A stretch of DNA of 6,566 nucleotides. It comes from a virus (taxonomy: Duplodnaviria > Heunggongvirae > Uroviricota > Caudoviricetes). Below are positions 1 through 2,634 of the stretch, one piece after another; within the stretch, counting starts at the first letter, position 1, and every line of letters starts with the position of its first letter. The DNA lies in the IMG/VR virus record IMGVR_UViG_2695420746_000010; one strand, written 5' to 3'. The notes under the pieces were generated by a model, which saw only the letters and a list, made by a program, of their open reading frames with translations, was not told where the DNA came from and did no database searches. Both the position numbers and the translations under genes were made by a program.

Positions 1-321
1 GAAGGAGTGTCCGTTAAACTCAGGCTACCTCAATTTGCGCTGGGAAGTGGTGCGCAAGTTGCGTCTAGTGGCGATATTTATGGTTCAGTGTGGGAAAACA
101 ACTGGTTAAGCACATGGCTGCATAATCATGTCGTTCGGGATATTCGTCTTGGCAGCATTGAATATAAAAACGTATGGCGCGACTACGGCTTTGGCGATGC
201 GTCAGGTTATGTTTTAACAGCCGCAATTAACAGCAATGCGGATGATATTGTCGACACTGTTGCCAGAAGGCCAATTCAGAAATTGATTGGGGGAATATGG
301 TACAACGTGGGGAGTGTTTAA
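1..321 (+). CDS. Tail-fibre protein, C-terminal variable end (partial; 5' end lies upstream of the window)
   Basis: Frame 1 is open from base 1 to TAA at 319-321. The C-terminus ...RDIRLGS...[18 protein letters not shown] parallels the end of the minus-strand tail-fibre frame (...RDVRLGT...[18 protein letters not shown]). The stop lies 1 nt before the start of the downstream tfa gene, the usual stf-tfa coupling. Confidence 0.6.
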
Positions 322-322
322 G

Positions 323-850
323 ATGATGCACCTGAAAAATATTAAGGCCGGGAATCCGAAAACACCGGAACAATACCAGCTAACTAAAAAAGCGGGCGTG
401 GTATGGCTCTTTTGCGAAGATGGCAAAAACTGGTATGAGGAACAAAAGAATTTTCAGCCAGACACCATAAAAATTGCTTACGATGAGAACAACATCATCG
501 TTGCTGTCAGTAAAGACGTTTCAACTATTAATCCTGAAGGGCTAAGCATAGTTGAAGTTCCTGATATTACGGCAAATCGTCACGCAGACAATAACGGAAA
601 ATGGATGTTTCTGGATGGTAAAGTAGTAAAGAGGGAATATACAGAACAGGAACTGCAACAACAGGCCGAATCACAAAAGGCCGCATTGCTTTCCGAAGCT
701 GAATCAGTCATCCAGCCGCTGGAACGAGCTGTCAGGCTGAATATGGCAACAGACGAGGAACGCACACGACTGGAAGCATGGGAACGCTACAGTGTTCTGG
801 TCAGCCGTGTGGATACGGCAAATCCTGAATGGCCACAAAAGCCTGAATAA
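323..850 (+). CDS. tfa: Tail fibre assembly protein (Tfa family chaperone)
   Basis: ATG at 323 (a second ATG at 326), GGGGAG at 310-315 as RBS. Translation [23 protein letters not shown]...[30 protein letters not shown] has the N- and C-terminal signatures of lambda/e14/Mu-type Tfa proteins as I recall them. Lies immediately 3' of a tail-fibre end and is paralogous to the convergent ORF 879-1412. Confidence 0.85.
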
Positions 851-855
851 AAATT

Positions 856-875
856 AAGGCCCGATAGCGGGCCTT
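856..875. terminator. Hairpin between convergent tfa genes; candidate bidirectional terminator
   Basis: Perfect 8-bp inverted repeat aaggcccg-atag-cgggcctt sits in the 28-bp gap between the stop of tfa (850) and the stop of the minus-strand tfa (879). An A/T run flanks it on the left side; the U-tract is weak on the other side. Confidence 0.45.
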
Positions 876-878
876 CTC

Positions 879-1412
879 TCATTCTGGTTGTTCGGGAAAC
901 GTTACTGGCAGGCTGGAGGTGTCTGTGGATTCAACCTTCTGCGCATAGAGCATCCACTCGGTTAATTTTTGTTTATTCTCATCGGAAATGATGCCCAGCT
1001 GTAGCTGAGAGTCCCACAGCTGGGTTTTATCCCTGACGAGCTGCAGCAGGCTCTGCTTTTCATTTTCCGCTTGTTGCCTTTGCTCTTCCTCGGTATAAGT
1101 TCGCTTTATCACCGCACCATCTTTGAACATCCAGTTGCCCGAAATATCAGCCCGGCGATTTGCTGTAATATCAGGCAACTCAACGACACTTAAACCTTCT
1201 GGATTAATTGCTGATACATCCTTGTCTATAGCAATAATTATTCCCTCAACTGTGTAAGCCAGTTTTATTGTATCCTCCTGAAAGTTTTTTAATTCCTCAT
1301 GCCAATTTTTTCCATCTTCGGACCATAACCAGATAACATCAAAATTCTTTGTTAGCTGGTATTGTTCAACGGTTTTTGGATTACCTGCGACAATGTTTTT
1401 TAAATGCTGCAT
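879..1412 (-). CDS. tfa: Tail fibre assembly protein, alternative copy (Tfa')
   Basis: 177-aa [40 protein letters not shown]...[20 protein letters not shown] is clearly paralogous to the + strand Tfa across the N-terminal two-thirds, with a divergent C-terminal third. Its ATG (1410-1412) lies 2 nt after the TAA of the minus-strand tail-fibre frame. Confidence 0.85.
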
Positions 1413-1414
1413 GA

Positions 1415-2341
1415 TTATACCTGCGATACGTTATACCATGTTCCGTTAATTAACTTTTGTATTGGTCTGAATACTGCCGGATCATCACCATCGACTTCAC
1501 CGATAATACCAAGCCCCGTGATTACATGGCCTGATTTTTCATACATCACGCCTTTCTTCATGGTCTAAACAACTCGTGTGCCAAGTCTGACATCTCTCAC
1601 ATAGCGGGAATCAAAGTTACCGTAATCCGAGGGATTAACACGTCCCGTAATATTTATGGTTTTATTACTTTGAATGCTTCCGGAGACAAAGCGCATAACA
1701 TGGACGTTATTAGCATAAACATCCAGATTACCATCGCCTTTTTGTTTAAAGCCCGTGTCATTATCACCCAATACAATCGAATTACCGCCAAGAGCACTGG
1801 ATGTTCCGATACCCAGTGCACCATTCAGTTGACCACCAGATAACGGCAGTGCACCAACATCTCCTGCTGAAGGTTTTCTGGTGGTGTAAAATTCGGACCA
1901 GTCGGCTTCAAAACCATAACCATCACGGGCTGAACGATAAAAAATACCGCCATTTTTATAATTAATCCGAAACTGAGCTGCAGGACAACTTCCTTCTCCC
2001 ATATAAAAATGAATAATTAACGTTGATGCACCACTAATAGTTGCGTTATAGGCTCCGCTACTCCAGTTCCATCCAACTGCTTTATCATTCGCAACGGTGC
2101 TTCCTGTTTTCCCTAAGGCAAACGCACCAACATGACTTGCTTTTAATGTGATATCGGAGGAACCATCAAAAGCCACATTGCTTATTTTCCTGGCAGTTTT
2201 TAATTTTGCAGCTGTAGAAGCATTGCCGGATAGTTCACCAGAAAGGCCACCGCTGAATGTTTGTCGATTAGTCCAGGTATTCGCTGTACTGAGTAACGGT
2301 ATTTTCTCCCCGCTTGTGCCGAGTTCTCGTAAACCGAGGTT
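1415..2341 (-). pseudogene. Alternative tail-fibre variable region (Sv'-like), interrupted by an in-frame TAG at 1565-1567
   Basis: A single minus-strand frame is open from 2341 to TAA at 1415-1417 except for one amber codon (+ strand cta at 1565-1567). The 203-aa ORF-track segment (1565-2176) is Gly/Ser/Asn-rich like phage fibre tips. The 50 codons after the TAG ([49 protein letters not shown]) align with the C-terminus of the + strand tail-fibre end, so the frame was once continuous. The upstream limit is set by the pix-like site and a stop at 2342-2344. Confidence 0.6.
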
Positions 2342-2349
2342 TTAGATAA
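2324..2349. other. 26-bp gix/hix/cix/pix-family crossover site for a serine DNA invertase
   Basis: TTCTCGTAAACCGAGGTTTTAGATAA matches the recalled gix/hix pattern (TTCnnGTAAACCGAGGTTTTnGATAA-like, imperfect dyad around a central AA/GG). It lies at the 5' boundary of the minus-strand tail-fibre variable frame, where it encodes ...NLGLRE..., and immediately upstream of the invertase remnant, as in Mu G, P1 C and e14 P segments. Confidence 0.6.
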
Positions 2350-2403
2350 TGGCGGTTTCTGGCCTGCATGGCATGATTTGTGCTTTTGGACGGGAGATTC
2401 AGC

Positions 2404-2634
2404 GTGCTGATTGGCTATGTAAGGGTATCAACAAATGACCAGAATACAGACCTGCAACGAAACGCTCTTGTTTGTGCAGGATATGAACAAATATTTGAAG
2501 ATAAATTAAGCGGAACAAGGACAGGCCGACCTGGATTAAAACGTGCTTTAAAGCGCCTTCAAAAAGGTGACGCACTGGTTGTCTGAAAACTGGACTGACT
2601 GGGGCACTGTATGCGGCATCTTGTCGTGCTGGTG
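2404..2634 (+). pseudogene. pin: Serine DNA invertase (Pin/Gin/Hin family) remnant; N-terminal catalytic region only, with in-frame stops
   Basis: GTG at 2404 preceded by GGGAGA (2391-2396). Translation (M)LIGYVRVSTNDQNTDLQRNALVCAGYEQIFEDKLSGTRTGRPGLKRALKRLQKGDALVV carries the serine-recombinase motif YVRVSTxxQ. The frame then hits TGA at 2584-2586 and 2596-2598 (…VV*KLD*LG…) where an intact invertase would continue …VVWKLDRLGRS…. From about 2629 the same frame continues into a tfa 3'-end repeat. Confidence 0.8.

Follow-up and report, generated by a model that had tools for sequence, protein, structure and literature searches.

Remainder of a Mu G/B-type invertible tail-fibre segment in a lambdoid prophage of Shigella sonnei, and its two-site relatives

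The DNA described here is IMG/VR virus record IMGVR_UViG_2695420746_000010 (Caudoviricetes), a scaffold of 6566 bp that was analysed in its entirety and is called the window below. Its first 2730 bp carry the genes and sites of an invertible tail-fibre segment, the kind of host-range switch represented by G of phage Mu, C of P1 and P of e14. The segment lies at the distal end of a lambdoid prophage that is integrated beside ompW/trp in Shigella sonnei. The scaffold contains three runs of N, which are probably gaps, and it ends in the terminal 32 bp of insertion sequence (IS) IS600 on one side (1-32) and in 29 bp of the end of IS1 on the other (6538-6566). Repeat-bounded ends combined with N runs are typical of a short-read contig. 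From left to right, the segment consists of the following features.

1-32: end of IS600 (32 bp), with which the scaffold begins; it truncates the plus-strand fibre gene.
33-321, plus strand: last 96 codons of the fibre variable part Sv, severed from its 5' part; the C-terminus of a 918-amino-acid fibre open reading frame (ORF) in the relatives L007 and L014.
323-850, plus strand: tfa, an intact tail fibre assembly gene resembling Mu U, 175 amino acids (Pfam Caudo_TAP, E = 8e-37).
879-1412, minus strand: tfa', intact and resembling Mu U', 177 amino acids (Pfam Caudo_TAP, E = 5e-34).
1415-2341, minus strand: fibre variable part Sv', 308 codons from the crossover site, in a frame open from 2341 (Pfam gp37_C, E = 1e-7).
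1565-1567, minus strand: in-frame CAG-to-TAG nonsense codon in Sv', by which the last 49 codons are lost.
2324-2349: 26-bp crossover site of the Din family, bixR type, TTCTCGTAAACC GA GGTTTTAGATAA, inside the open minus-strand fibre frame (...LGLRELGTSGE...).
2404-2634, plus strand: invertase pseudogene with a GTG start, in which 77 codons are left out of about 190; it matches Pfam Resolvase over profile positions 2-86 of 145 (E = 3e-19).
2635-2730, plus strand: tfa 3'-end fragment fused to the invertase stump, in direct repeat D2 (2633-2750 versus 4886-5003, 90% identity).

The upstream context of the segment was taken from genomes of identical sequence, which were found via the exact tfa protein, encoded in many public assemblies. 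A collection of genome contigs gave no match to the Sv end, as protein, or to an exact 46-mer across the IS600/fibre junction. Comparison loci L006-L015 are ten complete chromosomes of S. sonnei type, at least three of which are confirmed S. sonnei; L001-L004 are from Escherichia coli. Prevalence in E. coli was counted in 5,426 complete genomes.

The segment carries two alternative fibre-end cassettes in opposite orientation. Both tfa genes are intact, Sv has been cut to 96 codons by IS600 and Sv' contains the TAG codon. A first-pass annotation made from the letters of the window had described two convergent fibre-end/tfa pairs, which the Caudo_TAP matches of both tfa products and the gp37_C match of Sv' bear out at the coordinates given above; it had overlooked both the IS600 end, after which the plus-strand fibre piece starts at base 33, and the in-frame TAG. 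A Pfam search with the 96-codon Sv end gave no match, and in NCBIfam no match was obtained with either tfa protein or with the methyltransferase encoded in the right flank. The plus-strand fibre tip (33-330) has 99-99.7% identity to the ends of fibre genes on E. coli plasmids (92-95 kb and 48 kb) and on various chromosomes. It is nearly whole in only 25 of the 5,426 E. coli genomes. This tip is an example of fibre-tip exchange among phage types.

The 26-bp site occurs once in the window, with 0 occurrences expected by chance, and no second site was found there with up to 3 mismatches allowed. It was compared with published crossover sites (PMC3241671, Table 3). The best agreement was with bixR (24 of 26 positions, including all 12 of the outer half, and the core GA), followed by gixL and gixR (23 of 26 each, core GA). 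The sites with an AA core were more distant: hixL and cixR agree at 22 of 26 positions, pixL at 20 and pixR at 19. The stretch 2324-2349 is a Din-type crossover site with a 2-bp core. The e14 element was considered as the closest relative and rejected, as the closest e14 sites have 6-9 mismatches in 26 to the search pattern (window 2323-2348) and an AA core, while bixR and gix match far better. Thus, of the earlier description of a 26-bp 'gix/pix-like' site in the minus-strand fibre frame, the position and the membership of the Din family stand; the closeness to pix does not, the site being nearer to the GA-cored bix and gix sites than to the AA-cored pix sites.

Residues 1-60 of the product of the invertase gene next to the site are identical to Mu Gin at 56 of 60 positions, after which a TGA codon (2584-2586) takes the place of the conserved W61 and a second TGA (2596-2598) that of R65; R68 is changed to H. 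At the nucleotide level, 175 of the first 180 positions of the stump agree with Mu gin (97%), and the last approximately 30 nt of the stump are identical to pinE of e14. Beyond about 2632-2636 the sequence no longer resembles invertase genes; there the repeat of the tfa 3' end takes over and replaces everything beyond codon 77. This tfa fragment carries a W-to-TAG change of its own at 2644-2646. An intact serine invertase, with a catalytic domain and a C-terminal helix-turn-helix, does not adjoin the site. The first-pass annotation had already read the gene as an invertase with two in-frame TGA codons that was truncated by fusion to a tfa end, had placed the locus in the family of Mu G, P1 C and e14 P, and had seen no partner site in the window; the alignment to Gin, the collinearity of Mu G with the window (gix agreeing at 23 of 26 positions) and the search for a second site are all in agreement with this.

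The three Fis-binding sites of the Mu recombinational enhancer are located in the coding region of gin (PMC3378877). Given this location and the 175 identities to gin, the first 180 nt of the stump probably still hold the predicted Fis-bound enhancer in cis.

The same stump is found in several relatives. It has the same length in L007, L011, L013 and L014 and in the E. coli loci L001 (at potB), L003 (strain EC958) and L004 (strain NCTC86), the latter two at ompW/trp. The two TGA codons and the tfa fusion are common to all of them, and only 1-4 substitutions relative to the window were observed in the stump, none of which affects the TGA codons or the fusion. The invertase lesion is thus old and common to the S. 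sonnei and E. coli copies. Window positions 2000-2750 are nearly whole in 239 of the 5,426 E. coli genomes, at up to 99.5% identity. In E. coli the stump is labelled by PGAP as a partial recombinase family protein, the remnant is already listed as a pseudogene in RefSeq genomes, and the tfa fragment is annotated in EC958 and NCTC86 as a partial tfa pseudogene. The system is of a known kind, in a decayed state, and its remnant has already been annotated in E. coli. Window position 2604, in the region of the R68H codon, is G in the window and in the genomes truncated by IS600, and T in every two-site relative and in the copies from E. coli. The G is a substitution private to the truncated lineage.

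At the left end, window positions 1-32 correspond to 9679-9710 of L006, the end of a 1265-bp element (8446-9710) that is present in two copies in L006 and whose annotation in E. coli reads 'IS3-like element IS600 family transposase'. Matches of the fibre gene in E. coli begin at base 33, and the intact relative L007 departs from the window exactly at 32/33. Window positions 1-2752, including the IS600 junction, are 100% identical in six complete chromosomes (L006, L008-L010, L012 and L015), among which L012 (CP037997, S. sonnei FC1653) is the one confirmed S. sonnei. In these genomes, this IS600 directly follows the holin/DUF1327 lysis genes. The 3-bp sequences flanking the element (AAC and ATT) are unlike each other, which would be expected if the IS had mediated a deletion or an inversion, and not after a simple insertion. 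From each of these genomes approximately 10 kb upstream of tfa was retrieved, which corresponds to about 12 kb upstream of the crossover site, and a stretch of 20.5 kb was scanned. No partner site was present in these 20.5 kb with up to 5 mismatches allowed, and the constant part of the fibre gene was absent from the window and from the approximately 10 kb upstream of tfa. The window and the 20.5 kb of the six identical chromosomes therefore have one site only, instead of two inverted 26-bp sites bracketing the segment. To the right, the identical chromosomes continue with the methyltransferase, Rha and ash genes, followed by IS1 and trpA. When positions 1-9646 of L009 are compared with positions 1-9710 of L006, the early and lysis region upstream of IS600 is found to be rearranged, the early genes of L009 being inverted and directly abutting the IS. 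This arrangement suggests further IS600-mediated rearrangements in the prophage.

Taken together, window positions 1-2730 are very probably the right-hand remainder of an invertible tail-fibre segment of the type of Mu G and Shigella boydii B, a dead copy that can neither invert nor encode a fibre. With a single crossover site and no constant fibre part, neither an inversion nor a fibre is to be expected from it. When such a segment is intact, the long constant part of the fibre gene (Sc) reads through the 26-bp site into either Sv-tfa or Sv'-tfa'. The two alternative tip cassettes lie head to head on a segment of 2.9 kb, and a serine invertase encoded beside the second site flips this segment by exchange at the central GA. 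Four lesions separate the window from this form. The first and old one is the reduction of the invertase to a 77-codon stump with two TGA codons and a tfa 3'-end fusion; a recent one is the change of CAG to TAG in Sv'. In addition, IS600 has cut Sv 96 codons before its end, and an IS600-associated rearrangement appears to have eliminated both Sc and the partner site from the vicinity. We infer that the partner site has gone from the rest of the genome as well.

According to the first-pass annotation, the switch is locked unless an invertase acts in trans. The lock is evident; the rescue in trans does not apply to this copy, with Sv cut by IS600, no constant part or partner site within about 12 kb in the six identical genomes and a TAG codon in Sv'. 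The same observations bear on the proposal that the switch is complete and merely frozen by its dead invertase, with the partner site just upstream of the window, so that an invertase supplied in trans would restore flipping. Such a frozen state does describe the loci L007/L014 and L011/L013 and the E. coli loci L001, L003 and L004, which have two sites, a dead invertase and, among them, both orientations. In the window, however, IS600 at the left end (1-32) cuts Sv; the partner would be expected 566-591 bp upstream of base 1, where the six identical chromosomes have IS600 and lysis genes; a second site is absent from the approximately 12 kb upstream of the first in these chromosomes; and Sv' carries its nonsense codon. 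For the window itself this proposal is very improbable.

The relatives with an intact segment show what has been lost. Two sites are present in L001-L004, L007, L011, L013 and L014. Of the S. sonnei-type loci, L007, L011, L013 and L014 have kept the whole tail region, with J, Lom and the long fibre gene; L014 (CP179997, strain 391324) belongs to S. sonnei lineage 1.5 and L011 (CP179990, strain 830292) to lineage 2.3. In L007 and L014 the segment has the orientation of the window, and the 918-amino-acid Sc-Sv ORF runs through the left site into Sv. This left site reads TTTCCTGTAAACC GA GGTATTCGATA on the minus strand and the right site is identical to that of the window; the two are inverted relative to each other and lie approximately 2.9 kb apart, the left one at what would be window coordinates -591 to -566. 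In L011 and L013 the same segment, at 99.8% identity, lies the other way round within the same flanks, and the two sites read TTTCCTGTAAACC GA GGTTTTAGATA and GTTCTCGTAAACC GA GGTATTCGATA: compared with L007 and L014, the inner and outer halves have been swapped reciprocally at the core. In these flipped relatives Sv' is fused in frame with the constant part, and in L011 constant part and cassette together comprise 875 amino acids up to the TAG. A constant 5' fibre part that reads through the site into a cassette is thus present in L007/L014 and in L011, and is absent from the window. Among the close relatives, three states of the locus were observed: truncated by IS600 (6 loci and 12 similar ones), intact in the orientation of the window (L007 and L014) and intact and flipped (L011 and L013).

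The nonsense codon is distributed across these states. Codon 1565-1567 is TAG in the window, L006, L007, L011 and L013, and CAG in L014, of S. sonnei lineage 1.5, and in the E. coli loci L001 and L004. The Sv' TAG is younger than the invertase lesion. The TAG allele is found in both orientations of the segment.

The opposite orientations could also have come about by homologous recombination between inverted repeats, or they could be assembly errors, in which case they would have no bearing on invertases acting in trans. In the E. coli loci L001 and L004, the Sv' of the window matches both ends of the segment at 88-94% identity, and a RecA-mediated inversion is possible there. The ends of the S. 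sonnei segment, however, are alike over only about 12 bp at the core (GTAAACCGAGGT), after which the frames part immediately (LGLRELGTS... versus LGLQETVNK...), and the exchange between L007/L014 and L011/L013 is reciprocal and maps within the 26-bp site. The flipped state is, in addition, present in at least three genomes (L011, L013 and one similar place). We consider this explanation extremely improbable. A clean reciprocal exchange of half-sites between ends that are alike over only about 12 bp points to site-specific inversion, and the L011/L013 pattern is the footprint of such an event and not of homologous recombination. In E. coli, the orientation relative to the stump is flipped with respect to the window in L001 and L004 and not in L003; a census of orientations by BLAST coverage was not usable in this species because many copies have similar fibre ends beside their sites.

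Since the same dead invertase allele is present in both orientations, the segment was inverted after the death of its invertase and, in S. sonnei, where the TAG also occurs in both orientations, after the TAG mutation as well. The simplest reading would be catalysis in trans by a related invertase of another element. Cross-complementation was shown experimentally long ago for Gin, Pin, Cin, Hin and PinB. The reservation of the first-pass annotation about an invertase in trans thus gains substance in the two-site relatives, where one dead allele accompanies both orientations and the half-sites have been exchanged exactly. In these relatives (S. sonnei of lineages 1 and 2; E. coli such as ST131 and NCTC86) both sites are still in place, as are the first 180 nt of the gene for the invertase, where the Fis enhancer would lie. 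There is an even chance, in our judgement, that they represent a working non-autonomous switch, in which invertases supplied by other prophages or by infecting phages would decide on the fibre. On this reading the invertase of the module would have died before these prophages diverged, and the copy in the window would be a derivative that became fully dead later. The orientation polymorphism among S. sonnei genomes that are 99.8% identical and share the dead allele and the TAG supports this possibility.

As an alternative, the orphan site of the window, together with the enhancer in the stump, might still be recombinogenic. A foreign invertase would then pair it with its displaced partner or with a gix- or bix-like site of another prophage, giving rise to large chromosomal inversions or deletions and not to a fibre switch. 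The outer half and the core of the site are perfect, the first 180 nt of the stump are 97% identical to gin, in whose coding region the Fis sites lie, S. sonnei genomes vary upstream of the IS (for instance L009 versus L006), and several such modules occur in E. coli, at a median of 2 places per genome. Against this, no second site was found in the 20.5 kb examined, and the rearrangements that were observed are bounded by IS600 and not by the site. Wild-type Din invertases moreover act in a defined synapse, for which the sites have to be in cis, and they preferentially invert DNA between correctly oriented sites that are near each other. A recombinogenic role of the orphan site is very improbable.

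Several points weigh against the interpretation of the window as a dead remainder and of the relatives as segments flipped in trans. The source contig stops inside IS600, and its upstream state was derived from genomes of identical sequence. In these, coverage extends over 10 kb upstream of tfa, and an inversion mediated by IS600 could have carried Sc and the partner site to another part of the chromosome; the region upstream of the IS is arranged differently in L009. A piece of the ipaHe gene at 2764-3765 is missing at this place from all ten complete genomes, so that either the source departs from them to some extent or the scaffold is a chimera. Finally, a trans-acting invertase was identified in no S. 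sonnei genome, and no whole-genome search for one was made.

Among the characterized systems, the B-pinB system of S. boydii has the most similar crossover sites. The site of the window has the bixR outer half and the GA core (24 of 26 positions), and the partner site in the relatives has the bixL outer half, GGTATTCGATA(A). As judged from the published site sequences, the inner half-site has 2 mismatches (TTCTCG versus TTCCTG). Whereas pinB is an active invertase, the gene of the window is a 77-codon stump with two stops, and the window further differs from B in its IS600-cut fibre end, the nonsense codon in the other end and the lack of a bixL-type partner. The B segment (GenBank D00660), described by Tominaga, Ikemizu and Enomoto in 1991, is said to be G-like in size and gene order and to be joined to a different constant fibre part, with which the lambdoid Sc of the relatives is in keeping.

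In the G-gin system of Mu, the order S-U / U'-S' / site / invertase is that of the window, and U (528 bp) and U' (534 bp) have the same sizes as tfa (528 bp) and tfa' (534 bp), respectively. The two stretches are collinear, the nucleotide identity being 81.6% for U-U' and 91.3% for the stretch that comprises the site and the 5' part of gin, and gix shares 23 of 26 positions and the GA core with the site of the window. Here, however, the segment is carried by a lambdoid prophage, whose constant fibre part is long and of the phage_tail_N type, in place of Mu S; the fibre tips are unlike those of Mu, the invertase is dead and a single site is left. The P-pinE system of e14 and the C-cin system of P1 follow the same principle and gene layout (stfP-tfaP / tfaE-stfE / pinE). 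The e14 element differs in its pix sites (19-20 of 26 positions, AA core), its intact pinE and its shorter P segment.

The module itself recurs in E. coli prophages (ST131 EC958, NCTC86 and others), where it contains the same succession of Sv', site, stump and tfa fragment, the two TGA codons and the fusion. Its neighbours are also those of the window: the methyltransferase, tfa fragments, Rha, ash and ompW'. The E. coli copies that were examined differ in having kept both sites and the constant fibre gene, and L001 and L004 are without the TAG; the window copy has the IS600 truncation and the ipaHe piece in its scaffold.

To the right of the segment, the scaffold continues with the following feature.

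2764-3765, minus strand: 5' 242 codons of ipaHe (leucine-rich repeat part; a type III secretion system effector gene), ending at an 11-N run where the conserved, multi-copy 3' half of ipaH would start.

In L006-L015, both flanks are 99.7-100% identical to the window and the 1-kb piece (window 2753-3765) is lacking, position 2752 abutting 3766 (CCGCAGCA / CCGTAGCA). A full ipaHe in enteroinvasive E. coli adjoins the same methyltransferase, but in a different prophage (at btsS). The piece may be strain-specific cargo or a scaffold chimera; as the N runs resemble scaffold gaps, the junction may be a scaffolding artefact. Copies of the tfa 3' end and its downstream flank (2633-2750, 4644-4713 and 4827-5003) bracket cargo genes (the methyltransferase and ipaHe). 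The two sides of the 113-N run (4714-4826) are near-duplicates of each other over 70 bp (97% identity). From the distribution of these copies, the region looks like an exchangeable cargo locus that would have been made by recombination between tfa ends. The invertase was truncated by the same tfa-end repeat.

In conclusion, the copy in the window is one more instance of IS-driven decay of a prophage in S. sonnei and in itself matters little. The orientation of the segment and the presence of IS600 at the locus could serve as markers of S. sonnei lineages. The dead invertase that is shared by relatives with both orientations is of modest interest as a natural illustration of cross-complementation between the Din invertases of different elements.

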